Shown here: piece after piece, positions 6,857 through 28,167 of the stretch
Layout: every line of letters starts with the position of its first letter
Position numbering within the stretch: position 1 is the stretch's first letter
From: Minisyncoccota bacterium
Lineage (GTDB): Bacteria; Patescibacteriota; Minisyncoccia; Phycocordibacterales; JABAAK01
Assembly (NCBI GenBank): GCA_963668425.1
Contig: OY764332.1
Coordinates: forward strand, 188,943 to 252,942
Direction of reading: 5' to 3'
DNA length: 64,000 bases
Translations under genes and position numbers: made by a program
The notes under the pieces: generated by a model
Told to the model about the DNA's origin: nothing
Database searches by the model: none
The model's input: the letters and a program-made list of their open reading frames with translations, nothing else

Positions 6857-7951
6857 TTAATGCTCGCTACTGTGCGGTTTATCTAATAACTCTCGACTAT
6901 ACTCACCTCCCTTTCCGGTAATTTTAAATACATCCTTATCAATTAAATCGTATTTCTGTTCCGCGCTGTTGTAATGATTTACTGCCGCAGAAAGTGATTT
7001 TCCGACACCGTGAAATGCTTGCATATGGTTTTCAAGTCGCTTCCGCAACACCTCAACTCGTTTAATAATCTCCTGTGCATGTTCTTCAACTTTGAGTGAT
7101 CGTAATCCGAGATTCACCGTTTGTAAATATGCTAACAGAGTAGTTGGTGAGACGATTACTACTTTGTGTTGCTTAAACGCATACTCCAACATATTTTCCG
7201 CACTCTCTCCAGTACCAATTTTTTGTGTCAACAGGTCATAATACAATGACTCAGATGGAATAAACATAAACGCATAATCAAGTGTTCCTTCTTTCGGCAA
7301 AATATACTTTTCTGTCTCCTGAATCCGTGCCTTAATATCCTCTTTTAACCTGCGCTCTGCTTCAGTGACTTCGGCATTTTTAAGATCACCATCTAACAGC
7401 TTCGTATAGTTATCGAGTGAGAACTTTGCGTCAATACTGATCATCTGCTTGTCCCGTAAAAATACCACTGCATCCGCCCGTGCACCATTTTTGAATGAGT
7501 GCTGCATTGCGTATGTATTTGGCGGTAGTACATTAGCAATCACCTGCTCTAATACATACTCTCCGACTACACCCCGCCGTTGTGGATTTTTTAGTGTCCG
7601 CTCAAGTGACTGTAGCTGATCTGTGAATGACAGCATCTCCCGCCCAGTTGTCTTCACCTCCGTTAACTCTTTCGTGATATCCTCCACCAACTGCTTTGAT
7701 GAGTCAAACTGTGCGCGCATTTGTTTGTGCATCACTTCTGCTTGTGACTGCATCTGTTTGTTCACCATCTCAGACCCCTGGTGTAGTCGTGTATCAAGGG
7801 TCTCACGAAAATCACGCAATTGTGCTTCAAGTGTTTTTGTGTCATTAGCTGATTTTTCCCGACGTATAATTAGCCATATCATCACCCCAAGCACAATACA
7901 TGTGATAAGTAGGGATACTAAGCTAAGCAATATACTGACCTCCATTGTCAA
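6857..7951 (-). CDS. rmuC: DNA recombination protein RmuC
   Basis: N-terminal TM segment, coiled-coil region, then a conserved RmuC-like core (GEYVLEQVIANVLP...AFMFIPSESLYYDLL...VVIVSPTTLLAYL). Confidence 0.75.
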   Translation of the reverse strand: MTMEVSILLSLVSLLITCIVLGVMIWLIIRREKSANDTKTLEAQLRDFRETLDTRLHQGSEMVNKQMQSQAEVMHKQMRAQFDSSKQLVEDITKELTEVKTTGREMLSFTDQLQSLERTLKNPQRRGVVGEYVLEQVIANVLPPNTYAMQHSFKNGARADAVVFLRDKQMISIDAKFSLDNYTKLLDGDLKNAEVTEAERRLKEDIKARIQETEKYILPKEGTLDYAFMFIPSESLYYDLLTQKIGTGESAENMLEYAFKQHKVVIVSPTTLLAYLQTVNLGLRSLKVEEHAQEIIKRVEVLRKRLENHMQAFHGVGKSLSAAVNHYNSAEQKYDLIDKDVFKITGKGGEYSRELLDKPHSSEH

Positions 7952-8042
7952 GTAGTATACAACGGCTTGCCAAACGTGTATACTGCATGCGAGGGTTATA
8001 TTTTTGTAAAACTACACATCAGTCACTATCAGGAGGTTACAC

Positions 8043-8705
8043 ATGAAATTGTTACCCCATTTTGCTTCTTTGTTACTCATTGTTTCCGTAGGGTTACTCC
8101 CCTCTGTTGCGCAGGCGACTCATGCTACAGAAGGACGTCCCACTGCCTGGGAAAGTGCAGTTGTTGCGGTTGAGTCAAATGTCCTGAAAAGCATGCATGA
8201 TCTCGCCTCAAAGAAACAATGGGATTCGGCAAAGGCACACCTCATTGTATATCGAGACATTGGTTCTTGCTCGAACGCAGCAGAAACAATTGGCAAAATG
8301 CTCATTACTAAGAATAAAGACGGAGCCCTTGCAGTTATTCAACTTACTCTCGATGAGTTAATCAATCCACATAGAGGTCCGATAACCTCTACGCGACAGG
8401 TGAAGCGCTCATTTATTCGGGCAATACAGGCGTCAAAAGGTGAAAAATCAAAAACTACCCTGATTGTAACTTTTTTTAATGTGTTTTCTTTAGATGGCTT
8501 AACGCCATCAGAGAAAGTTACCATTAATGAACTTCAAAGAATGGTCGGGGAAGGTCTTCTAAAAACCGCTGCTACTATAGAGAAAATATTTGCAGTGGTG
8601 ATTGAGGAAGTCGGAAATCTTTCTCCTTTGGATGAGAGAGGAATGCTATCCCCGATATCCCATTTGACTACTGAACCTCAACAACCTGTAGAACCTAATC
8701 CATAG
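8043..8705 (+). CDS. secreted hypothetical protein
   Basis: A caggagg SD precedes the ATG. The N-terminus carries a signal peptide (MKLLPHFASLLLIVSVGLLPSVAQA). No recognisable domain. Confidence 0.55.
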   Translation: MKLLPHFASLLLIVSVGLLPSVAQATHATEGRPTAWESAVVAVESNVLKSMHDLASKKQWDSAKAHLIVYRDIGSCSNAAETIGKMLITKNKDGALAVIQLTLDELINPHRGPITSTRQVKRSFIRAIQASKGEKSKTTLIVTFFNVFSLDGLTPSEKVTINELQRMVGEGLLKTAATIEKIFAVVIEEVGNLSPLDERGMLSPISHLTTEPQQPVEPNP

Positions 8706-8772: not shown

Positions 8773-9636
8773 ATGTTTACAGATTTCCCTATTCAAACAC
8801 TTGCCCGAGAACACTATCCGGCACCTCTCATAGAGATACCGCAAGTGCCGGAAAAACTATATGTCCGAGGTGAGCCGATAGATGCCACGAAACGAATGAT
8901 TGCCGTGATTGGTGCTCGCCGTTACTCAGAGTATGGCAAAAAATCGTGTGAAAAAATTATTGCTGATCTCGCTCCTTACCCTATCACCATCGTTTCTGGG
9001 CTTGCTATCGGTATAGATGGCATAGCGCACCAGGCGGCTCTCAGCGCAGGACTTACTACTATTGCTGTCATCGGTTCTGGACTTGATGAAGATGTTATGT
9101 ACCCGAGCACTAACAGAATGCTCGCTAAATGTATTTTGGAGCAAGGTGGCACTCTTATATCAGAACTTGAGCCACATGTTCGCGGCGCGAAATATACTTT
9201 CCCCTCTCGCAATAGGATAATGGCTGGGCTTTCAGAAGTCGTTATAGCCGTAGAATGCACAGAGAAATCTGGTACTCGTATTACCACCCGTCTTGCTCTT
9301 GACTATAACAAAGAAGTCGGCGCTGTCCCTCATGTTATTTTCTCAGAAACTGGGGCTGGGGCTAATGCCCTTATACATGCAGGTGCACACGTCATCAGGA
9401 GTGGTCAAGATATCGTAGAAATTCTTGGATTAGAACCTGTGGAACAACAAACACTTGATCTCACCACCCTTACTGACGATGAGCAGAAAATATACCGCTT
9501 GCTCACTAGCCCAAAAACGAAAACCAACCTTTCTCAAGAGAGTAACCTACCCCCTCACAAACTTTCCGCCGTTCTTGCCGGGCTGGAGATGAAAGGACTT
9601 ATTACCGAAATTCTTGGCACCATTCAACGCATATAA
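8773..9636 (+). CDS. dprA: DNA processing protein DprA (Smf), competence / recombination mediator
   Basis: Rossmann-fold DprA signature ...RMIAVIGARRYSEYGKKSCEKIIADLAPYPITIVSGLAIGIDGIAHQAAL...GSGLD.... The start is moved to Met19 of the ORF (8773), downstream of the terminator. Confidence 0.8.
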   Translation: MFTDFPIQTLAREHYPAPLIEIPQVPEKLYVRGEPIDATKRMIAVIGARRYSEYGKKSCEKIIADLAPYPITIVSGLAIGIDGIAHQAALSAGLTTIAVIGSGLDEDVMYPSTNRMLAKCILEQGGTLISELEPHVRGAKYTFPSRNRIMAGLSEVVIAVECTEKSGTRITTRLALDYNKEVGAVPHVIFSETGAGANALIHAGAHVIRSGQDIVEILGLEPVEQQTLDLTTLTDDEQKIYRLLTSPKTKTNLSQESNLPPHKLSAVLAGLEMKGLITEILGTIQRI

Positions 9637-9659
9637 ATATTTGCATGTGTCATAGTCAC

Positions 9660-10661
9660 TCAAGATAGCAAAGGATACTCAAGTGGCAAGGTCTTAATGT
9701 AGGATCGTTGAATGTCGTATGATGCGTCAATGAGGGTTTTTAGAAGGTCAAGCGTTACCATTTCTTTCTTGGATAAATGTGTGATAAAGGATGCATCCTC
9801 CTCACTATACTCATTTATTATATTTGCAATACCGCCGCGTAGTAATAGTGCTGATCGTAGCTTACGAATGCATAACTTCGCGAAAAGTGGCACATTTGCC
9901 CCTGTCTCGGCAATGGTCTCTAATGCGGCAATTCCTTTGGTAACATCTTTCTCGGACAACGCTTCTAAATACTCATTTACCACTTGATGTCGTGGCGCGC
10001 CAAGTACCTCTTCAACTGTCTCGTGTGCGATCTCTCCTGTATCTGCTACAAATAATACTTTTTGTACCAATGTTAACGCGTCTCGAAATGATCCTTCTGC
10101 CATTAAGGCGATTAGTGCCGCTGATTGTTCATTTATTTTGTATGTTTCTTTTTCTGCGACTGATTCAACTACTTTTTGCAATGCGGTGAGGGAGGGCTGT
10201 CGAAATTGTAGTGAAATGCACCGTGATACAATGGTATCTGGCACCTTGTCTGCCTCAGTTGTTACCAGCATAAAAATAGCATATGCTGGTGGCTCTTCAA
10301 GTGTTTTTAAGAAAGCATTAAATGCTGCTTTTGATAACATATGCACCTCATCCAAGATATACACCTTATACTCTGATTCAACCGGCTGTGTATATACCGA
10401 TTCTGTTATCTCCCGTATGTGTTCAACACTCGTATGTGATGCCGCATCAATTTCAAACATATCTATACCCTTACACCCTAATGATTGCGCAAATATGCGT
10501 GCGACACTCGTCTTACCGATTCCTCTCGGTCCGGTGAATAGGTAGGCATGTGCAACCGTGCCTCCGGCGACTGCCTTTTCAAGCACCGATACTACTTGTG
10601 GCTGCTCTATAATATCTTTGAAATGTTGTGGTCTGTGTTTCTGATATAATGCTCGCTCCAT
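9660..10661 (-). CDS. dnaX: DNA polymerase III subunit gamma/tau (short form)
   Basis: AAA+ clamp-loader motifs: HAYLFTGPRGIGKTSVARIFAQSL, YKVYILDEVHMLSKAAFNAFLKTLEEPP, SRC. Confidence 0.85.
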   Translation of the reverse strand: MERALYQKHRPQHFKDIIEQPQVVSVLEKAVAGGTVAHAYLFTGPRGIGKTSVARIFAQSLGCKGIDMFEIDAASHTSVEHIREITESVYTQPVESEYKVYILDEVHMLSKAAFNAFLKTLEEPPAYAIFMLVTTEADKVPDTIVSRCISLQFRQPSLTALQKVVESVAEKETYKINEQSAALIALMAEGSFRDALTLVQKVLFVADTGEIAHETVEEVLGAPRHQVVNEYLEALSEKDVTKGIAALETIAETGANVPLFAKLCIRKLRSALLLRGGIANIINEYSEEDASFITHLSKKEMVTLDLLKTLIDASYDIQRSYIKTLPLEYPLLS

Positions 10662-10744
10662 ACCCTCTATAGTACCCTACCTATATCAAACACAACATGG
10701 ATTTTACCTTGTGCCACATTATATCTGGTTATACTACTTACCTG

Positions 10745-11293
10745 CTATACCTCTTCCTGCTCCGTCCGTTTTTTTACCTTCTGTACACCGTCTAAAATTG
10801 TTCTGCGAACTTTTGCATACTCTGGCAATTCTTCAACTTGCTGTATGCCCAGATGTAATAAAAATTCAACAGAAACTGATAGTAATCGCTTCCGTGCATT
10901 CGGCGTATCCTGAATTAACCCTCGCATCATTAATCGTCGCAGTGTGTACTGCGTGTTCACTCCGCGCAGAAAATCTAAATCTACCTTTGCAATTGGCCCT
11001 GCGTATGCGATGATGGATAGTGCTTCCTGCATTGCCCTGGAGAGTGGAGCCGCCTCCTCCTCTTTTCGTAACCCTTCTATAACATCCACCAGTGATGGAT
11101 TTGTCGCTAATGCTACCTGTGTGCCATCATCAACTATAATCACTCCACTGTCTGCCCGTTGTTGCCGTAGATGCCCTAACAGTCGCTCCAACTCTTTGCT
11201 GTCACACTTAACTTGCTTTGCGAGTTGTTTTTTTGTTACTCTGGCACCGCTGGTAAATAATATCGCCTCTAATTTTTGCAGTGCATCCTTCAT
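10745..11293 (-). CDS. scpB: segregation and condensation protein B
   Basis: LEAILFTSGARVTKKQLAK...LSRAMQEALSIIAYAGPIAKVDLDFLRGVN is typical of ScpB winged-helix repeats. Confidence 0.75.
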   Translation of the reverse strand: MKDALQKLEAILFTSGARVTKKQLAKQVKCDSKELERLLGHLRQQRADSGVIIVDDGTQVALATNPSLVDVIEGLRKEEEAAPLSRAMQEALSIIAYAGPIAKVDLDFLRGVNTQYTLRRLMMRGLIQDTPNARKRLLSVSVEFLLHLGIQQVEELPEYAKVRRTILDGVQKVKKRTEQEEV

Positions 11294-11566: not shown

Positions 11567-12277
11567 TTACCTCTTACTAACAACAATATCGTCAAAATGC
11601 TTGTTTTGTGTTGCTGTTAACATATCTTTTCGTATCAATTCTAATACCGCAAGAAAAGAAATAATTTTTTCCTGCTTGTCTGCTTTTGCGGATAACGACT
11701 GAAACGATACTGACACCCGTTTTGTTACTGCGGCAAGCACTCGCTCAATTATCTCCTCTATCCGCACTTTTGCTCTGACTTTTTTCTGTGGTGGCTCCCG
11801 CAGAAATGATAATCCTTGTAATACAGCATCCGCATTGCGTTGTAACCCTTTCACGGTACATGAGTTATCAGGAAGAAACATAACCTGTTTTGTCGTGCTC
11901 TGTATTGCTACTACGGATGACCGTTTTTTCCAGCTGTTCAGTGCCGGCACTACTTGCATGCGGATGAAGTCAAATAATTTCATTCTGTCTTCTAGCTCGG
12001 CAACATCCACCTCTTCTTCTTCAGTATATTCCAAAACTGGCAACAGTGACCTTGACTTGATTACTATCAAGATAGATGCGATATGAATAAAGCGCGCCAC
12101 TTCCTCTGCCGGTACTGCTGCCATCTCACGAACATATCTCATATAGTCAGCTGTTATTTTTGCTAATGAGATCGTGTTGATTTGCAGTTTTCGTTTTTCT
12201 ATTAACTGGTGCAGTAAGTCCAGCGGACCTTCAAACTGCTCCAACGACACGATGTACTCCTGCTGTTCATTGCTCAT
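11567..12277 (-). CDS. scpA: segregation and condensation protein A (kleisin)
   Basis: LEQFEGPLDLLHQLIEKRKLQINTISLAKITADYMRYV is an ScpA N-terminal signature. The start was chosen at Met20 of ORF 11567..12334; it overlaps the 3' end of aspS by ~10 nt. Confidence 0.75.
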   Translation of the reverse strand: MSNEQQEYIVSLEQFEGPLDLLHQLIEKRKLQINTISLAKITADYMRYVREMAAVPAEEVARFIHIASILIVIKSRSLLPVLEYTEEEEVDVAELEDRMKLFDFIRMQVVPALNSWKKRSSVVAIQSTTKQVMFLPDNSCTVKGLQRNADAVLQGLSFLREPPQKKVRAKVRIEEIIERVLAAVTKRVSVSFQSLSAKADKQEKIISFLAVLELIRKDMLTATQNKHFDDIVVSKR

Positions 12278-13607
12278 ATAGACGAGTATCAATTCGGTTT
12301 CTGTCTCTCGGGAAAATCGCCGCTTCTTTTGCATTTGCTAATCCGAGTATCTTTGCGGTAAGCCGTTCTAGCCCAAGTCCCATACCTCCATGTGGTGGCA
12401 TTCCGTACTTGAAAGATTGTAAATAAAATCCGAATTCTTTTTCTGGATCTATGTTCGGTAACTTTTCTTTGATTTTTCGCACCAATTCTTCGTATTCGTG
12501 CACTCGCTGTCCGCCGCTTGTAATTTCCACCCCACGAAACAACAAATCAAAACTTTTTGTGTACCCTGGGTCATCCGCATCGTCATAGGTGTACCATGGT
12601 CGTTTTTCAGTTGGATAGTGTGTTACAAAAATAAAATCTGAATTGTGTTCTTTTAGGGCATGCTCGCACAACTGTCGCTCATGTTCTGGTGTTAAGTCCG
12701 GCTCCCCTACGCAGTCATCTCCAAATTGCGTCTTAATAATCTCCTGTGCTTCAAGTAACTTTATAATTGGAAACGGCTTTTCAGGTAGTGTCGGCATAGT
12801 TGCGCCGAGGATGGCAGTTTCCCGTTTCGCCTTTTCCGCGATAGAGGTGACAATATGTCGCACACACCCCTCTAACATGTTCGTGACATCAGTGTGATCG
12901 GTAATATATCCCATCTCAAAGTCCATACTTGTATACTCATTCAAATGTCTTGAGGTGCTGTGTTTTTCCGCGCGAAACACGTTCCCAATACAAAATGCTC
13001 GTTCAAACACTCCTACCAATATTTGCTTATATAGTTGCGGACTTGTCGCCAATGATGCTTTAATATCAAAATAATCAACTGGAAATACCTCTGCACCACC
13101 TTCCGCATCACCTCCGACAATCTTCGGTGCCTGAAACTCAACAAATCCTTGTGAGGTCAGATACTCCCGAAACCCTTGTGCAATTAACGCTTGCACCCGA
13201 AAAACCGCTCGGTCATCATCTCGCCGCAGTGTCAGTGGACGATAGTCAAACCGTGTGTCTAAGTTCAAGTCCGCCATTTCTAAATCAAATGGCAATTCTT
13301 GTGCTTTTGCTAACACCGTCAGTGTCTTCACTACAAATTCAATGTCCCCGTTTTCTCCTTCAGTGCGATTCTTTTCCGGTCGCTCCTGCACCTCCCCAGT
13401 CAGAGAAAGTACGCTTTCTGGTGATAGTTTCTGTGCATCGGCAAACTTGTCGTGTGCACTCGGCACAAAGCACTGTACTGACCCTGTCCGGTCGTATAGG
13501 TCAATAAACAATAATTTGCCGTGATCCCGCACCGCCGCAATTTTCCCACTGACAAGAACCTCCTGCCCCTTTTTCTCACCAAGATTTTCCATCAAACACC
13601 GCTCCAT
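12267..13607 (-). CDS. aspS: aspartate--tRNA ligase, archaeal/eukaryal-type (possibly non-discriminating) class IIb synthetase
   Basis: Length 446 aa. N-terminal OB fold (VLVSGKIAAVRDHGKLLFIDL). Motif 2 is FRAEKHSTSRHLNEYTSMDFEM and motif 3 is GMPPHGGMGLGLERL. AsnRS cannot be fully excluded. Confidence 0.65.
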   Translation of the reverse strand: MERCLMENLGEKKGQEVLVSGKIAAVRDHGKLLFIDLYDRTGSVQCFVPSAHDKFADAQKLSPESVLSLTGEVQERPEKNRTEGENGDIEFVVKTLTVLAKAQELPFDLEMADLNLDTRFDYRPLTLRRDDDRAVFRVQALIAQGFREYLTSQGFVEFQAPKIVGGDAEGGAEVFPVDYFDIKASLATSPQLYKQILVGVFERAFCIGNVFRAEKHSTSRHLNEYTSMDFEMGYITDHTDVTNMLEGCVRHIVTSIAEKAKRETAILGATMPTLPEKPFPIIKLLEAQEIIKTQFGDDCVGEPDLTPEHERQLCEHALKEHNSDFIFVTHYPTEKRPWYTYDDADDPGYTKSFDLLFRGVEITSGGQRVHEYEELVRKIKEKLPNIDPEKEFGFYLQSFKYGMPPHGGMGLGLERLTAKILGLANAKEAAIFPRDRNRIDTRLYEQ

Positions 13608-13823
13608 ATATGTATTTTATGTATATAACAGAAATAGTATATCACACTATCTTATCTACCTTTAATCTCCTATTTTGTCATCTTGAGTGTTCTGATTGCT
13701 GTTGTGATAAGTTTGGGGATTGGGATGCCTGCTTGCACGGTTAATACTCCACCGAGTAATAATCAGTATCTGACAACTCTTCCAGATCTATTGGACTTCC
13801 ACCTGCATTTCGGAAACCTGTTG

Positions 13824-14084
13824 TTATATTTTCTTGAGTGTAGTCTTATATCCAAAATAATCTTCTATCGCCTTCAGCATTCTTTTTGCCGATACAACAC
13901 TACCACTCATAATGTATTCGTCAGTGTTCCGTGATTCAAATACATCGTCAATAATAATATCAACCCCTTGTTTAATTTCTTCTATAATTACTTGCGATAA
14001 CAGATCACGCTCTTCCCGCCTAAAAGGGCTAGTCGCACATATAGTCATTGAAAATTTCTTTTCTAGTTTCTTTTTATACTCCAT
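13824..14084 (-). CDS. hypothetical protein (island cargo)
   Basis: 86-aa ORF in an AT-rich block with no recognisable motif. Confidence 0.35.
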   Translation of the reverse strand: MEYKKKLEKKFSMTICATSPFRREERDLLSQVIIEEIKQGVDIIIDDVFESRNTDEYIMSGSVVSAKRMLKAIEDYFGYKTTLKKI

Positions 14085-14118
14085 ATGCCTTCGCTTACTA
14101 TAATTTTACCCTGTCTTT

Positions 14119-14301
14119 TTAGAGTTTGCTGAGCACCTCTAACCAAATGCTTCCATTTTTTTCATCACTAAGCATATTCATTTTATCAATGCATTCTTTC
14201 ACTGTTTTACAACCATACTCTTTTTTCATCTCTTCCATAAAGGCATCTTTGTAATTTTTAACATGTAAGAAATATAGTAAAAGCGGAACTGCCTCCAGCA
14301 C
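14119..14301 (-). CDS. hypothetical small protein (island cargo)
   Basis: 60-aa ORF; weak. Confidence 0.25.
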   Translation of the reverse strand: MLEAVPLLLYFLHVKNYKDAFMEEMKKEYGCKTVKECIDKMNMLSDEKNGSIWLEVLSKL

Positions 14302-14347
14302 CCGCCTTACCTGAATATAACCCTCATTTTATTGCTATACTAAAAAC

Positions 14348-15208
14348 ATGACCAAAATGACAAGCACTGCCGGCAAGCAGAAAGTGTGTCGGGAAAGGAA
14401 GGTGTTGATAAATGAAGTGTTGTGTGGGCGGGCGGAAATTGTGTTGAATGATATCCCTAATAATGCGGTAGACATTGTTGTAACATCACCGCCGTACGAT
14501 GGTATCAGGGATTATAATGGCTTTGATCTTGATTTGCATGCAATTGGACGGGAAGTGTTCCGTGTTTTGAAGGATGGTGGTATTGCAGTAATGGTGATAC
14601 AAGACCAAACGAAAAATTTTGGGAAGACACTGACCTCTTTTAAGACAATTATAGACTGGTGCGACAATATCGGCTTTAAGTTGTTTGAGACGGCTATTTA
14701 TAGAAAACACGGGGCGGAAGGTGCGTGGTGGAATAAGCGGTTTCGTGTTGACCATGAATACATACCAATTTTTTTGAAAGGAGAAAGACCTGCTTTTTTT
14801 GATAAGGAGAGCTTAAAGATACCATCAAAGCATGCCGGCAAGACAATACGAGGTGGCGGGACGAGGTTGACCAACGGTAAGAGGATTGATACGCGACATA
14901 TAACAATCAACCCAACAAAATGTCGTGGTACTGTGTGGGAATACTTGACTGCTGGAGATGGCACACGATTGAAGCATAAACATCCTGCAACATTCCCTGA
15001 TAAATTACCGATTGATTTCATACAATGCTTTTGTCCGGAAGAAGGTGTTGTCTTGGATCCGATGTGTGGCAGTGGCACCACTCTCATGGCGGCAAAAATG
15101 TTGGGGAGGGACTATATAGGTGTAGATGTATCGCCAGAATATTGTGATTTATCTCGGAAACGATTGTTGGAAGAACTACCTAATCAAACACTCCGCTTTG
15201 AGGAATAG
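14348..15208 (+). CDS. beta-class DNA methyltransferase (N4-cytosine or N6-adenine)
   Basis: Motif IV VVTSPPY comes before motif I VLDPMCGSGTT (beta permutation). HPATFPDKLPIDFI precedes motif I. The SPPY form favours N4C. Confidence 0.85.
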   Translation: MTKMTSTAGKQKVCRERKVLINEVLCGRAEIVLNDIPNNAVDIVVTSPPYDGIRDYNGFDLDLHAIGREVFRVLKDGGIAVMVIQDQTKNFGKTLTSFKTIIDWCDNIGFKLFETAIYRKHGAEGAWWNKRFRVDHEYIPIFLKGERPAFFDKESLKIPSKHAGKTIRGGGTRLTNGKRIDTRHITINPTKCRGTVWEYLTAGDGTRLKHKHPATFPDKLPIDFIQCFCPEEGVVLDPMCGSGTTLMAAKMLGRDYIGVDVSPEYCDLSRKRLLEELPNQTLRFEE

Positions 15209-16154
15209 TGTACTCAACCCTGTTTGTTGCCGTTATTGCAAAAGAAATGGGATTTTTTGTTAATAATTCGTTTCTTCTCCTGAAACTCGTTGTGTTGTCT
15301 AAGACACTTTTGGAAAACTGTATGCATTCAAAATTGTCCCAACACCAGGACTGACTGTTGTATTCCCAACCTGTAAGATCAGATAGCATTTGTAAAATCC
15401 CTTCGCTTTTTTTGACCTCCTCCTTCTCTATATATGCTTGGTTATCACTTCTCACAATGTTTGCCGTCTCTCCGCCACCTCTCTCGGATATCTTTACTTT
15501 TTCTCTACCTCTTCCACCACCTATCTTCTTTATTTTACCGAATAGTTCTTTCATCAATTCCATACTTTCTGCTATAGGTGTGTGTTGTGTGAAAAATACA
15601 TCGTTCAATATGTCATTTCTTGTTGCTTGTAGGAAGTGAAACCAACTTAAACTATTTTCTGGGTATCCGAATATGTTCTTGAAGGTACCGTCGGCATACA
15701 GTAGCGGTGCAACAATACTTGGACTCTTCTCTAACTGCATGGCACTGCCGACAATCGCAATGAGCAGATGTATTGTTCCAAATGGGTATTTGTTTTGAAA
15801 GTCATTTTTAGCGTCAAATCCTCTTAGGTTGTTTGCGGAAATGCAGTTTTTAAAATTATCCCAATTTTCTGGAATCTCATTTTTGTTTGGCAGTAGCATG
15901 TGTTGCCCAACACTGCGTATATTTTTTCTGTACATCTCTACGTCAAGATACACAACAGAAGATGGATCTGTGTTTTTTTCTATTAGCAAAACTTTGCCGT
16001 CATACAATCCTTTTACTTTCCAGTTTAAGTGCTGAGACATGAAAAGTGCGCCTAACAATCCGTCGCAATCAGGGCTTATTACACAGCTTTCTTCTTTTGA
16101 GACAATCCATGGAAACTGTTGTATTATTTTTTGATAGTTAAGAGCATTATCCAT
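15180..16154 (-). CDS. hypothetical protein convergent with the methyltransferase (candidate restriction-nuclease partner)
   Basis: ORF 15180..16247. The first 31 codons of the track ORF read through the tRNA-Ser gene, so the start was moved to Met32 (MDNALNYQ..., 16154). Its 3' end overlaps the MTase 3' end by 29 bp. It contains SPDCDG...VYLDVEMYRK, loosely PD-(D/E)xK-like. Confidence 0.45.
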   Translation of the reverse strand: MDNALNYQKIIQQFPWIVSKEESCVISPDCDGLLGALFMSQHLNWKVKGLYDGKVLLIEKNTDPSSVVYLDVEMYRKNIRSVGQHMLLPNKNEIPENWDNFKNCISANNLRGFDAKNDFQNKYPFGTIHLLIAIVGSAMQLEKSPSIVAPLLYADGTFKNIFGYPENSLSWFHFLQATRNDILNDVFFTQHTPIAESMELMKELFGKIKKIGGGRGREKVKISERGGGETANIVRSDNQAYIEKEEVKKSEGILQMLSDLTGWEYNSQSWCWDNFECIQFSKSVLDNTTSFRRRNELLTKNPISFAITATNRVEYTIPQSGVFD

Positions 16155-16198
16155 GTTGTTTTTGATATGACTTACTCTTGAAATGCAAATATTTTTAT

Positions 16199-16290
<92 letters not shown>

Positions 16291-16338: not shown

Positions 16339-16734
16339 TCAATCAAAATCAATATCTTCTTCTTTTCCTCTATTTTTTTGATCAAGATAGCTTTGTAAAA
16401 TGATTGTTGCCGCTTCTGCATCAGTTCCTTTTCCGAGTCGTTTTGCTGCTTGTGTGGAGAACTGTTCCGGCTCAAATAGCACTTCTGCTTTTTCGCGCAC
16501 CGCATTTGCAACTTTCTGTACATCTGTCATAATTGGGTTTTTTTTACCATCTAAATCAAGTGACTCACCAAACACCACTGCTTTAATACCCCGTTCGGTA
16601 ATTAATGCCAGCAACTGTTCAATACATCTCTGACGTTTCAATGCTGTAAGTGGAAATGCTATAGACCCTTCGTCGTCGGAAATCGCCACTCCGACTCGTT
16701 CCTGTCCGATATCAACACCCAGGTATTTTTGCAT
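16339..16734 (-). CDS. ruvX: Holliday junction resolvase-like RuvX/YqgF
   Basis: MQKYLGVDIGQERVGVAISD is the canonical YqgF N-terminus. The start is Met24 of ORF 16339..16803. Confidence 0.8.
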   Translation of the reverse strand: MQKYLGVDIGQERVGVAISDDEGSIAFPLTALKRQRCIEQLLALITERGIKAVVFGESLDLDGKKNPIMTDVQKVANAVREKAEVLFEPEQFSTQAAKRLGKGTDAEAATIILQSYLDQKNRGKEEDIDFD

Positions 16735-16744
16735 GTGCTCACTG

Positions 16745-17008
16745 TTAGGACTGGACATCAATTGTAACTTTGCCGGCGGCGCGCACCACTCGTCCTTCAG
16801 CATCTTTCATGTTGCCGGAGACAATGATAATCAGATCAACAAGCCACCAAACCCCAAAGCCACCTAAAGTAATAAGTTTTAGTACGCCGGTGCCGATTTT
16901 GCCTAGATAAAATCGATCAATGCCAAGACCACCGATGAAAATTGATAATAAAAGTAAAATAATAAAATTTTTGTCACTTGTGTTTGACGTAGTATTTTTT
17001 TCATTCAT
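16745..17008 (-). CDS. TM2 domain membrane protein
   Basis: GGLGIDRFYLGKIGTGVLKLITLGGFGVWWLVDLI matches the TM2 domain signature. Confidence 0.7.
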   Translation of the reverse strand: MNEKNTTSNTSDKNFIILLLLSIFIGGLGIDRFYLGKIGTGVLKLITLGGFGVWWLVDLIIIVSGNMKDAEGRVVRAAGKVTIDVQS

Positions 17009-24231: not shown

Positions 24232-25569
24232 CTATAATCGTAGCATCCAAAGAGCCATGTCATATTTATTTATAAAAAACAGAAATTCTCCGTCTGTGCT
24301 TATTTGAGGGTGAACAACGTCAAATGTAGTGTTGTTAGAAAGGAGTTGAATTTCATCCTGATCAGGTGAGAGTGGTAATTGCTTTTCTCCTGTTGCTGCA
24401 TTCACTAATATAATCACATCGTTCAAAGAAATGTCCCCCTGGTACCACGAGTCAGGAAACATTGTTTCATACCCAGAAAGGGTTTCTGCAGGGACAGATT
24501 TCGGCACGGCACATACAAATACTCCATTCACTGTATCACATTTTTCAGGTAGCGTTATTGGTAGGTCAATAGAAACGCTTCGGTCTCGATTAGTAATGGA
24601 TGCTTTTCCGGCGAAATTATCCGCCTTTGTTTCAAACAACATAAAATATCCTGTTGTTGTGTCCATCAAAGCCGATCCACCTGAGTCAAGAGAAACGAAT
24701 TGCTCATCGGGCAGAACACCTTTCGGATCAATAAGATACACAAACCCTTTCATGAGATCAGTGACAGGGGTGTGCAATGTGATGTGCGTGCCATTACCCC
24801 ATCGCGGAATCCAAGAGGTGAAATCTGATCGCCAAATCACTTGTGTCTTTGATGGATTTGAGACATCAACAATGACACCAACTGATTTGTCATCAATCAC
24901 CTGAATAAAAAAGAGGAGGTTTTTATTATTTGTTGCGACACGAATGTTGTCCTCAAACCGCTGGACACTTGGACTGGTGTTGACTGTAGAAAAAGGAACA
25001 AATGCAGATCGTATTACGGATTCGTCATCGGCACTTTCATATAGCACAAGCACCTCACCATTTTCAAACGGATACCCCTCAACCGCTCGGGTAAATTCAC
25101 CACGCGCAGTCAGTGTTAAAGAGTACGGAATAGCTTGTACTGCATACCGATTTCCCCGCCCTTGCTCAACAACCTGCACTTCCCAGCCATCTCCTTTCTT
25201 CGCGACACGATACCCTGCTGTTGGACCCTTAAAGAGTCGTATTAGCCGTGGTATGTTTTCCTTGTCTTCGGTGATAGTGTCATTAATATCATTACGCTCA
25301 TCGGATAGTGGAATTGTACGCACCCGATCATCCCGCTGCCCCACCTCATCATTAGAAACAGAGCGCTCAAAAGAGATTTGATTCGGTTGTGTTGCTTCAA
25401 GGTTATTAAGACCGAGAGATGGCACTTGTGGAAGAGTGGGTGTAGTTGTTTCCGGCGGCGCAGGAGTAGGTGGCTCTGCGGAGAAATATACATAAATACC
25501 GGCGAAAAGTAATGCGAGAAACACTAAAAAAACAATTACAGCAATAGTAAACCTTTTTATAGGAGTCAT
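24232..25569 (-). CDS. membrane-anchored hypothetical protein (PT-rich linker, beta-propeller-like C-terminus)
   Basis: N-terminal TM MTPIKRFTIAVIVFLVFLALLFAGIYVYF, then PPTPAPPETTTPTLP. C-terminal PQISTDGEFLFF resembles TolB-type blades. Confidence 0.5.
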   Translation of the reverse strand: MTPIKRFTIAVIVFLVFLALLFAGIYVYFSAEPPTPAPPETTTPTLPQVPSLGLNNLEATQPNQISFERSVSNDEVGQRDDRVRTIPLSDERNDINDTITEDKENIPRLIRLFKGPTAGYRVAKKGDGWEVQVVEQGRGNRYAVQAIPYSLTLTARGEFTRAVEGYPFENGEVLVLYESADDESVIRSAFVPFSTVNTSPSVQRFEDNIRVATNNKNLLFFIQVIDDKSVGVIVDVSNPSKTQVIWRSDFTSWIPRWGNGTHITLHTPVTDLMKGFVYLIDPKGVLPDEQFVSLDSGGSALMDTTTGYFMLFETKADNFAGKASITNRDRSVSIDLPITLPEKCDTVNGVFVCAVPKSVPAETLSGYETMFPDSWYQGDISLNDVIILVNAATGEKQLPLSPDQDEIQLLSNNTTFDVVHPQISTDGEFLFFINKYDMALWMLRL

Positions 25570-25595
25570 ATGATACTAGTATATCGCGACAAGAA

Positions 25596-27215
25596 CTATT
25601 TATCACACTTAATCCCACCCTCATATGTTTTATCGCCTTGTGTTATATCTCCCCATGTAATATCAAAGCAGTGTGTTGTACTAAGAGGTATTTGTATGGC
25701 ACTGTCTTTATCAAGTAGCGGACCTGTATTTGCCGGTATTATGAATACCATACAAAACTTTTGAACATTCTTGTTAAAGTAAAAATCAACAGTAAACCCA
25801 TCTCCTAGTTTTTTCACCCTATTTTGAATTGAAAAAGCAAAATCACTATTAACGACCTTTGATGATTTATCGTATGCTGTGTATTCTGCAAGAATACCAT
25901 TTGTACCATTGTAGGTGTGATCAATAAAGTGAATCTTTTGATCAGACCTTGCACTCTTAAGATTGTCTACACCACTAATTTTAAAATTAAATTGAGCGCC
26001 GTGCTTTTTTCCGTAAGCAGCACTTAACTCCTCCCCTTTGGGTGGATGAATAAGGTATTGTGTATTTGGACAATTTGTAACAGATGATTTGATGAATGAT
26101 TGTATCTGAGAGGTTAGGTGTGCATCTTCATTTTTATTTTTCCATGGTAGTCCATGCCAAAATTTCTTCTGCACAACTTTTGTTTCAGTTTGGTCTGTAT
26201 TTGGTACTTTCTCAGATTCTTCAACTCCAATAGATACAGCAGGAAAAGCAACAACAATCTCTACGTCATCTGGTAGTTGTATTACTGATTCATCGGGTTT
26301 GTTTGGTGGCGTGCAGTTAATAACCTTCGCCCCTTCATTTTCATTCTCCTCATTATAGGTATATACCCTATCACTCACCGCTCTTGTATATAAAACCTGA
26401 TAAGAATACTGCAATGGAATGGGTGATGTGTCATGCTGCAAAGATTTTTTAATGCTATTTAATTGATCTCTAAAATTAGTGTCAACGATTTCAGGGCAGC
26501 GAGTTATGGTTAGTTTTTTACTTGATTTGTCAAATTCAATACCATTTTCTGGAATTTCCAGATTGTTTGAGTATAATTCAGAACCTTGTCCGACTTCCTG
26601 TAGACCTGTGATTGTTTGAAATAACCTAGGTCGCAGGAGGGATGGAGCAATAAAGTTTAAGATAACCCAAGAAAGTAGCAGAATAGCGGTGCCGATTGCA
26701 GCACTTTTTACTCGCCCTTTTGCGTCAGAAAAAACTGCAACATTGCCTCCAAACTCGGCATAGATCATCCGAGTGCCATGCACTGCCAGCAGTATGACCA
26801 TAAGTATCCCAGAAAGTGTGAAAATGATACTAAAAAAACGACCAAAAATTCCTTGGATTGTTCTACTTACAGACTCCCTGTCATTGTTACTTGCTTTAAT
26901 TTCTTTTCCTGCGCCAAAAATACTGCTGTATAGGTGTAATCTCAACGGCTCTTTCCCTGCTATACTCTGCTGAGCAGGATTAACGGTTGTTGGTGGCGAT
27001 GTTTCGTTTTCATTATCTTCGCCATCTTTGTCATCTTCGCTATCTTTGTTATCGTTGGTGTTTCCTAGATTATCAGGTAATTCAACATCGGCTGCATTGG
27101 TTTCCTGTATGTCAACTATCGGACCTTGTGCAAACAAGACACCACCAAAAAGACCCCCTATACTACAGACGAAAAGTAAACTGAATATCAGATTGTTGTA
27201 AATCTTTGTTTTCAT
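25596..27215 (-). CDS. membrane protein with acidic low-complexity region and a VirB2/TrbC-like two-helix hairpin, plus a large extracytoplasmic domain
   Basis: The start was moved to Met20 (27215). The hairpin is IQGIFGRFFSIIFTLSGILMVILLAVHGTRMIYAEFGG...AKGRVKSAAIGTAILLLSWVIL. There is a paralogous hairpin in the CDS at 44701..45870. Confidence 0.5.
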   Translation of the reverse strand: MKTKIYNNLIFSLLFVCSIGGLFGGVLFAQGPIVDIQETNAADVELPDNLGNTNDNKDSEDDKDGEDNENETSPPTTVNPAQQSIAGKEPLRLHLYSSIFGAGKEIKASNNDRESVSRTIQGIFGRFFSIIFTLSGILMVILLAVHGTRMIYAEFGGNVAVFSDAKGRVKSAAIGTAILLLSWVILNFIAPSLLRPRLFQTITGLQEVGQGSELYSNNLEIPENGIEFDKSSKKLTITRCPEIVDTNFRDQLNSIKKSLQHDTSPIPLQYSYQVLYTRAVSDRVYTYNEENENEGAKVINCTPPNKPDESVIQLPDDVEIVVAFPAVSIGVEESEKVPNTDQTETKVVQKKFWHGLPWKNKNEDAHLTSQIQSFIKSSVTNCPNTQYLIHPPKGEELSAAYGKKHGAQFNFKISGVDNLKSARSDQKIHFIDHTYNGTNGILAEYTAYDKSSKVVNSDFAFSIQNRVKKLGDGFTVDFYFNKNVQKFCMVFIIPANTGPLLDKDSAIQIPLSTTHCFDITWGDITQGDKTYEGGIKCDK

Positions 27216-28167
27216 TTTGAGCAAATACACGAATAGGTATTTCGGTGTTCTCACCCTGAACAGAAATATCAAGCTTTCTACCCTCCTTTAGATGGCTTGT
27301 TTCGTTATTTACAAACCACCTGTATTGTATCGCATTTTTTTCAAAATCGGACTGATTGAAGTAAAATGGGTACACTGAAGCCGTAATTTCCTCACTCCCG
27401 AGAGAAAGATTTTTGGAGAAAACCCGATCTCGAGCAAGTCCATATAGTAAGGTGTGTGGATATACTAATAATCGCGGTTCAATGATAGGAACATTAATGA
27501 TTTTTTCAAAGGCAACCTTGCCGCTTTTAATGAGTGTTGCTTCAACCTGTACAATGATATACCTATTCAAATAACTTCCACCATCTTCATACACCACACT
27601 ACTAACTCCGGGACCCCGACTGCTATGATATCGTGATTCAATCATCCAACGAAATGAAAAGTCCCTCTCGGTATATATAACACCATCTTGGTCAACATAC
27701 TGTATTTTTGCTGAAAGCTTTATCGGTGTCTGTGGTCCTGCGAGCCGATGTCCCCGATATAGTGGCGTGACTACTGAATCCGCCTCCCACAACACATCAA
27801 AAATAACTGGTCGTATCCATCTGGAAATATCTATAAATCTTTTGTCGCCTTGTGAATCAAAGTAATGTATTCGTGCGTTCACTCGCTTTGGTGCGCTGCT
27901 GGCAATTTCGGTAATCTCCATCTTGTTTGTGTACTCTGCCCGCTCAGTGCCGTCAACATACCATGTGACCAATTGAATACTGGAGATAAATGATTTGTTA
28001 GATCTGATGGTGAAATCAACATACTTACCTGGTGACGGGTACGACTCACTTACAACAATTTCATATGCATCATAACTCCCTTGCACTTGCGCGAATGCAG
28101 TGTGAGAAAGCATTAAAAATCCACTCAAAAAAACAATGTATGCATAGAAAAGAAATAGCGTTCGCAT
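27163..28167 (-). CDS. secreted hypothetical protein
   Basis: Signal peptide MRTLFLFYAYIVFLSGFLMLSHTAFAQ. No recognisable domain. Confidence 0.5.
   Translation of the reverse strand: MRTLFLFYAYIVFLSGFLMLSHTAFAQVQGSYDAYEIVVSESYPSPGKYVDFTIRSNKSFISSIQLVTWYVDGTERAEYTNKMEITEIASSAPKRVNARIHYFDSQGDKRFIDISRWIRPVIFDVLWEADSVVTPLYRGHRLAGPQTPIKLSAKIQYVDQDGVIYTERDFSFRWMIESRYHSSRGPGVSSVVYEDGGSYLNRYIIVQVEATLIKSGKVAFEKIINVPIIEPRLLVYPHTLLYGLARDRVFSKNLSLGSEEITASVYPFYFNQSDFEKNAIQYRWFVNNETSHLKEGRKLDISVQGENTEIPIRVFAQNENKDLQQSDIQFTFRL

Follow-up and report, generated by a model that had tools for sequence, protein, structure and literature searches.

A horizontally acquired gene pair in a Minisyncoccota genome is a likely type II restriction-modification system with a DHH/RecJ-like nuclease

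The folds of restriction enzymes listed in a 2023 review are PD-(D/E)XK, HNH, GIY-YIG, PLD and the HALFPIPE fold of PabI (PMC10273834). The PabI family was recognized by its co-mobility with a methyltransferase gene across closely related genomes (PMC10273834). Here we describe a gene pair from a 64,000-nucleotide stretch of the small (697-kb) genome of a Minisyncoccota bacterium (contig OY764332.1, positions 188,943 to 252,942), which we refer to as the window. The pair – a DNA methyltransferase gene and a gene for a 324-amino acid (aa) protein without annotation – lies in an island between tRNA-Ser(GGA) and aspS. The module is very probably a restriction-modification (R-M) system, and the likely reading of the island as a whole is a two-gene type II system whose restriction enzyme is DHH/RecJ-like.

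An earlier interpretation made from the letters of the window (the sequence-only reading) had described a beta-class methyltransferase on which a 324-aa open reading frame (ORF) converges with a 29-bp overlap, and had suggested that the two form a type II R-M pair with a possibly uncharacterised restriction enzyme. The gene anatomy is as described, and both suggestions gained support from the family-wide comparisons given below. The module comprises the following features:

14348-15208, plus strand: methyltransferase gene (beta-class N6/N4 DNA methyltransferase, 286 aa), PF01555.
15180-16154, minus strand: 324-aa ORF, candidate restriction endonuclease with a predicted N-terminal DHH/RecJ-like domain and a C-terminal alpha/beta domain.
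15180-15208, no strand: 29-bp convergent overlap of the 3' ends of the two genes, from the ORF coordinates.

The 29-bp overlap recurs in loci L001 and L002. A 355-aa version of the 324-aa ORF, with a GTG start and reaching into the tRNA, was discarded as an artefact; homologues begin MDN....

The methyltransferase matches PF01555 (E 4.9e-37) and the PADLOC model MTase_II (E 2e-42). Its SPPY motif lies at residue 47 and DPMCGSGTT at residue 237, placing motif IV ahead of motif I and therefore in the beta order; both catalytic motifs are intact. Matches in the PDB include 2zie (E 4e-20), the N4-cytosine methyltransferases 8s9n and 1boo, and the N6-adenine enzymes 1g60 and 6pbd. By the rule of thumb for SPPY, which is also the motif of M.PvuII, the methylated base is probably N4-methylcytosine. 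In L002, from a 2.17-Mb genome, the methyltransferase orthologue (6947-8158, 403 aa) carries an N-terminal Peptidase_S24 (LexA-like) extension, so that regulation may be built into the enzyme. Two genes from that module lies a GmrSD type IV restriction gene (9284-11131).

In contrast to its partner, the 324-aa protein is recognized by no family library that we searched, with no match in Pfam, NCBIfam, PADLOC, PHROGs or the sequences of the PDB. Searches of PDB sequences with the single protein and with two profiles returned chance matches only (capsid protein, condensin, haemoglobin), and tblastn of plasmid and phage collections returned no match. The family is nevertheless large and entirely unannotated: a word-indexed search found 220 homologues, all nameless or labelled 'hypothetical', and an exhaustive search found 602 cluster representatives at E<=1e-3.

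To place this family in genomic context we used a locus scan limited to one genome per species, which returned 80 loci; adjacency was assessed over 82 loci. Carriers include Patescibacteria, DPANN archaea, Methanobrevibacter, Chloroflexota, Planctomycetota, Bacteroidota, Alphaproteobacteria and Cloacimonadota, among others. By tblastn, a methyltransferase orthologue (57-80% identical) sits directly beside the 324-aa homologue in 80 of the 82 loci, in convergent orientation in 76 and in tandem in four; both loci without a methyltransferase neighbour are interrupted by contig ends. The genes on either side of the pair differ wholly from locus to locus. One cluster representative, P0311 (623 aa), is a methyltransferase-nuclease fusion according to the gene call, with a PF01555 methyltransferase at residues 20-255 and a DHH-like domain at residues 311-609. 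These patterns show a separate partner gene that is co-inherited with the methyltransferase across unrelated genomes, as in type II R-M systems.

We considered a different explanation for this linkage, in which the 324-aa protein accompanies the methyltransferase without cutting as its restriction partner. Its role might then be in repair or processing (as that of Vsr is beside Dcm), in exonucleolytic degradation of nicked DNA or as a small-nucleotide phosphodiesterase. We regard this as unlikely. Across domains of life and amid unrelated flanks the two genes stay together, whether convergent, in tandem or fused, and N4- or N6-methylation brings no mismatch-repair need comparable to that of 5-methylcytosine deamination, which counts against a Vsr-like role. 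In one locus (L076:6001-6949) the nuclease orthologue is frameshifted into two tblastn segments while the adjoining methyltransferase is intact – the usual decay pattern of R-M systems, and a further point against an accompanying repair function. The kinship of the protein, examined next, speaks for such a role: known DHH enzymes are exonucleases or small-molecule phosphoesterases, and all of the DHH matches listed in our searches are of that kind.

AlphaFold2, supplied with a 28-sequence alignment of the family, produced a model of the 324-aa protein with a pLDDT of 92 and a pTM of 0.92. Residues ~1-215 form a DHH/RecJ-like domain, the putative catalytic part, and residues ~225-324 form a C-terminal alpha/beta domain; the top Foldseek match is RecJ-Cdc45, at a weak E of 6e-3. 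We assign the candidate nuclease a DHH-like fold with high confidence.

The conserved residues of the family fall at the positions of the DHH motifs. In a 41-sequence alignment that reaches down to 21% identity, D29, D31, G49, D71, H85, K122, P124 and W171 are invariant and S81, G83, N108, D155, Y164 and N167 nearly so, with D155 present in at least 90% of sequences. The DxD pair (D29, D31) follows the strand at 23-26, D71 follows the strand at 68-70, the (G)HH segment follows the strand at 80-83, and D155, in a 'DGTF' context, matches the position of motif IV. Motifs I (DxD), II (D) and IV (D) of the DHH superfamily are thus all represented. Motif III departs from the literal Asp-His-His. It reads G83-Q84-H85 in the window protein, against a superfamily consensus of S-I-G-H-H; Gly takes the place of Asp, most relatives have GHH where the window has GQH, and the last His alone is invariant. 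We therefore describe the protein as DHH-like rather than as a member of the Pfam DHH family, since the fold and motifs I, II and IV are present while the literal triad and a match to the curated models are not. Catalysis through the DHH motif residues is reasonably likely. The alignment varies most over the C-terminal third, which fits a recognition domain joined to a common catalytic domain.

The sequence-only reading had pointed to a loose 'PD...D-x-E..K' pattern in this protein. Its residues are truly conserved (D29, D71 and E73), and the fold to which they belong is DHH/RecJ-like rather than PD-(D/E)XK. It is very improbable that the protein is instead a highly divergent PD-(D/E)XK endonuclease: the model lacks the core of that fold and no PD-(D/E)XK nuclease is among the Foldseek matches. 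In favour of that reading are the conservation of P28-D29 and D71-x-E73 and the standing of PD-(D/E)XK as by far the commonest restriction enzyme fold (PMC10273834).

Carriers of the module also avoid a short palindrome. AGNCT occurs 12 times in the window against 186 expected (observed/expected ratio [O/E] 0.06, Poisson P 5e-63); its loss affects all four central bases, and the two pairs of 5-mers concerned are the two most depleted of 512 pentamers. Across the pooled 82 carrier loci, no other of the 136 gapped tetramers is as depleted as AGNCT (706 observed, 1995 expected, O/E 0.35), and it ranks first of 136 in 28 of the 82 loci and among the top three in 45. The flanks alone give an O/E of 0.33. 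The most extreme hosts are far from Patescibacteria: a Flavobacteriaceae locus has none of 26.7 expected sites, two Bacteroidetes loci have one of 31.5 and one of 25.8, and a Rickettsiales locus has none of 9.4. Summed over carrier loci outside Patescibacteria and DPANN archaea, ~153 of 604 expected sites remain (O/E ~0.25). By comparison, contigs with distant family members have O/E values of 0.78 (189 kb) and 0.60 (135 kb), and E. coli has 0.64.

Judged from these counts, carriers show the avoidance of target sites that is typical of type II R-M systems. On balance we favour AGNCT as the target of this system, with the link between avoidance and system inferred. Strong avoidance of a short palindrome in carriers is the usual signature of restriction pressure and also argues against a nuclease that merely accompanies the methyltransferase. 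We know of no characterised enzyme with AGNCT specificity, although we made no comparison with REBASE, and a full-text literature search for the string returned nothing relevant.

The 324-aa family belongs to a wider superfamily. When a distant clade was used to scan metagenomes, 80 loci were recovered; among the 56 that have a neighbouring ORF, 29 adjoin a PF01555 methyltransferase of another subtype (DPPY, DPPF or SPPY), as confirmed by Pfam on samples and by phmmer. Distinct clades thus pair with different methyltransferases, as restriction enzyme families do, which again disfavours a role in repair or nucleotide turnover. A solitary clade (L102-L117, L138, L143, L145 and L154) keeps all of the catalytic residues and has no adjacent PF01555 methyltransferase, which some other loci lack as well. 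Among the genes beside these solitary members are those for a dockerin-bearing Endonuclease I, a chorismate-binding enzyme and MacB/FtsX. Such members could act as modification-dependent nucleases or serve outside defence.

Several observations weigh against the proposal of a DHH/RecJ-like restriction enzyme specific for AGNCT. The first is this part of the superfamily that lacks an adjacent methyltransferase, which also speaks for the accompanying role considered above. Second, to our knowledge, characterised DHH nucleases are all exonucleases or small-phosphoester enzymes, and none cuts duplex DNA internally at a specific site. Third, kinship with the DHH superfamily is weakly indicated at the level of sequence. 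None of 28 aligned family members matched any Pfam model, DHH and DHHA1 included, at E<=10, and HMMER profiles of the family found no match in the PDB. Profile-profile alignment by hhalign with 11 RecJ/DHH domains from annotated entries, ten of them plasmid records, gave P 4.7e-4 and a score of 35.3 at a probability of only 33%. That alignment is in register at motif I, motif II, the NPN motif and K-x-x-x-G (KYPFG), and controls were weaker (P 0.06 for the reversed alignment, 0.39 for AspRS and 0.21 for the methyltransferase); alignment to the single E. coli RecJ sequence was too weak to be informative (probability 0.3), and a regular-expression search of the fetched loci found no bona fide DHH protein. 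Finally, the metal ligands are putative, and the proposal presumes that the five of them cluster in space.

The assignment of AGNCT meets similar objections. Depletion of AGNCT is moderate in relatives too: one that lacks the island at this site and may carry the module elsewhere (L084, described below) has an O/E of 0.36. Four Paceibacteria-like relatives that may likewise carry the module (L098-L101) range from 0.41 to 0.79; they are unclean negatives, and the contigs with distant family members were added as a second control. The window also avoids TCGA (37 observed, 162 expected), GGCC (23 and 97) and GGNCC (43 and 113). We read this additional avoidance as suggesting that other R-M systems elsewhere in the genome exert pressure on its sequence. 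Given relatives that are depleted as well and these further avoided sites, the assignment of AGNCT to this system is an inference.

We examined the history of the locus in close relatives that were chosen through their AspS homologues and whose contigs were then compared with the window. The island and its surroundings comprise the following features:

12267-13607, minus strand: aspS (aspartate–tRNA ligase; homologues are named non-discriminating AspRS), a conserved flank by synteny, with PF01336 and PF00152 in homologues.
13620-16172, no strand: inserted island of ~2.55 kb, bounded where homology with the empty L084 site ends (blastn and junction alignment).
13651-13720, no strand: 70-bp scar in place of a 1152-bp segment of the same-species contig L083 (blastn).
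13824-14084, minus strand: 86-aa ORF, no family match.
14119-14301, minus strand: 60-aa ORF with a GTG start, no family match.
16199-16290, minus strand: tRNA-Ser(GGA), found with ARAGORN, its CCA end toward the island.
16339-16803, minus strand: ruvX, a conserved flank by blastn synteny, with PF03652 in the L083 and L084 orthologues.

The relative L084 (AspS 94% identical; a 647-kb contig, taken as circular) has ruvX, tRNA-Ser and aspS around an empty island site. Window positions 18098-16181 align by blastn with L084 3969-5885, and 13608-11515 with L084 6000-8092, leaving ~114 bp between the blocks of homology in L084 against ~2.55 kb in the window. Homology ends at window positions 16181 and 13608, and the junction alignment places the island at ~13620-16172. 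The island is also absent from L086 (AspS 83% identical). The same-species contig L083 (98% nucleotide identity) has the island plus an extra 1152 bp, with window position 13721 aligning to L083 4790 and 13650 to L083 5943. The window arrangement appears to derive by deletion from one like that in L083. The extra segment (L083:4791-5942) has two ORFs: one of 108 aa, in which the stretch 'VYTGITNNPKARFFEHK' resembles GIY-YIG (PHROG endonuclease, E 0.01), and one of 288 aa without a family. In another part of L084 (8112-8612), a two-gene insert missing from the window separates scpA and scpB; its ORFs have 79 aa and 85 aa, the longer one matching YafQ toxin weakly.

A further relative, L085 (AspS 93% identical), has different R-M genes upstream of aspS (L085:1298-5888). 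These encode a 105-aa fragment of a MunI-like restriction enzyme (PF11407, E 4e-42), an MT-A70 methyltransferase, a 269-aa methyltransferase-like ORF, and a PF01555 methyltransferase that is 29% identical to that of the window and overlaps a 354-aa protein without a known family. Because another relative holds different R-M genes at this position, the tRNA-Ser/aspS site behaves as a hot spot for the exchange of R-M genes.

The module was thus acquired horizontally between tRNA-Ser and aspS, as the sequence-only reading had proposed from composition and position. One of its two arguments, position beside a tRNA, is no evidence of integrase-type insertion. No integrase-like gene is present among the window ORFs (ORF list and Pfam), as that reading had also noted. 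The 25-nt tRNA 3' end occurs once even when three mismatches are allowed, leaving no att-like direct repeat, and neither a repeat search nor the junction alignment found repeats at the island boundaries. The behaviour of the locus is that of a place where R-M genes are exchanged rather than that of an integrase-type tRNA island. The CCA end of the tRNA is gene-encoded in the window (...CTCCGCCA, 16172-16201) and not in L084 (...CTCCGCAGG, L084:5866-5895), and of the hairpin GGAAAAATATCTGTATTTTTCC found after the tRNA in L084 the window has a degraded version.

The argument from composition stands in modest form. The guanine-plus-cytosine (GC) content of 13608-16198, the ~2.6-kb block between aspS and the tRNA that had been called AT-rich, is 0.385, compared with a window mean of 0.4226 (standard deviation 0.0128, equal-size blocks). 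This is the lowest value in the window, tied with a block near 25.5 kb, and the dip is modest. The 324-aa gene (0.379), the spacers and the pair of small ORFs (~0.335) account for it, whereas the methyltransferase gene (0.433) is at the native level. That native level, together with the lack of an integrase and of an att repeat, is what could be said for a native block whose methyltransferase is an orphan with a housekeeping role. We give this explanation almost no credence: the empty site in the relative with 94% identical AspS refutes it, the block is missing from the 83% relative as well, the 93% relative carries other R-M genes at the site, and the module is found in unrelated phyla and unrelated contexts.

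The two small ORFs noted as orphans in the block are present, and they lie outside the conserved module and are confined to the same species: the 60-aa ORF has 97% amino-acid identity in L083 and is missing from the other 82 loci, and the 86-aa ORF (95% amino-acid identity) was found in L083 only. Neither has a match in the family libraries searched. Promoter and terminator scans of the island gave nothing beyond shuffled expectation. The second low-GC stretch (window 25200-27800) matches the island in its low GC. It includes a T4SS-pilin domain within a 558-aa ORF, along with ORFs without assigned function, and adjoins a T2SSE ATPase; we rejected the low-GC region at ~25-28 kb as a second island, as it holds pilin and secretion genes and no R-M genes.

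Taken together, we propose the following scheme for the system. The methyltransferase would modify AGNCT on both strands, guarding host DNA, and the 324-aa protein would be the restriction enzyme that acts on unmodified sites. Hydrolysis of the phosphodiester bond would depend on divalent metal ions whose ligands are D29 and D31 of motif I, D71 of motif II, H85 of motif III and D155 of motif IV, with K122 and the NPN motif contacting phosphate. The variable C-terminal domain would provide sequence recognition, probably as a homodimer on the palindromic site. Transcription of the nuclease gene may come from read-through of the tRNA gene; this is plausible because its start codon lies 44 nt downstream of the tRNA-Ser 3' end on the same strand and the hairpin after the tRNA is degraded.

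We see an even chance that the family founds a DHH/RecJ-like superfamily of restriction endonucleases, comprising the first DHH enzyme that makes internal cuts in duplex DNA at a defined sequence, with AGNCT specificity here, several clades with their own methyltransferases and specificities, and a distribution especially common in Patescibacteria and DPANN archaea. Our literature search, to which REBASE itself did not belong, found no description of a DHH-type restriction enzyme, and a search on R-M motifs of Patescibacteria found nothing relevant. If the proposal is correct, a DHH-based enzyme would add a further fold to those of restriction enzymes and would widen the chemistry of the RecJ/Cdc45 superfamily from end-processing to site-specific internal cleavage. 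Once the family is recognized, many methyltransferases now called 'orphan' in genomes of Patescibacteria, DPANN archaea and other uncultured lineages, which are presumed to have few defence systems, would become parts of complete R-M systems. AGNCT, if confirmed, could be a new specificity of practical use.

Relative to the DHH superfamily (RecJ, archaeal RecJ2/GAN/RecJ-Cdc45, Cdc45, NrnA, GdpP, PggH and family II pyrophosphatase), the 324-aa protein has no Pfam DHH/DHHA1 match, has GQH/GHH rather than DHH as motif III, and has a C-terminal domain that is not recognisably DHHA1 and lacks GGGH. Its genomic role would also differ, in a methyltransferase-linked defence module rather than in replication, repair or nucleotide turnover, and the proposed internal, site-specific cut of duplex DNA is known for no DHH enzyme. 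The PabI (HALFPIPE) glycosylases resemble this case in that a gene of unknown fold was found through its movement with a methyltransferase and through target avoidance in hosts (PMC10273834). The folds are unrelated, and PabI is metal-free and excises a base, whereas the 324-aa protein keeps a full set of the acidic and His residues typical of a metal-dependent phosphoesterase.

The closest likeness is to type II R-M systems with a beta-class N4-cytosine or N6-adenine methyltransferase, such as PvuII (M.PvuII is 1boo), which share the two-gene module, PF01555 and SPPY ahead of motif I. Convergent genes with overlapping 3' ends, a patchy horizontal distribution, and a proposed target that is short, palindromic and avoided in host genomes are likewise features of type II systems. 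It differs from known ones in that the module has no controller (C) protein gene and the nuclease fits no listed restriction superfamily. The system would thus work as an ordinary type II R-M pair, in which the new element would be the catalytic fold of the nuclease.

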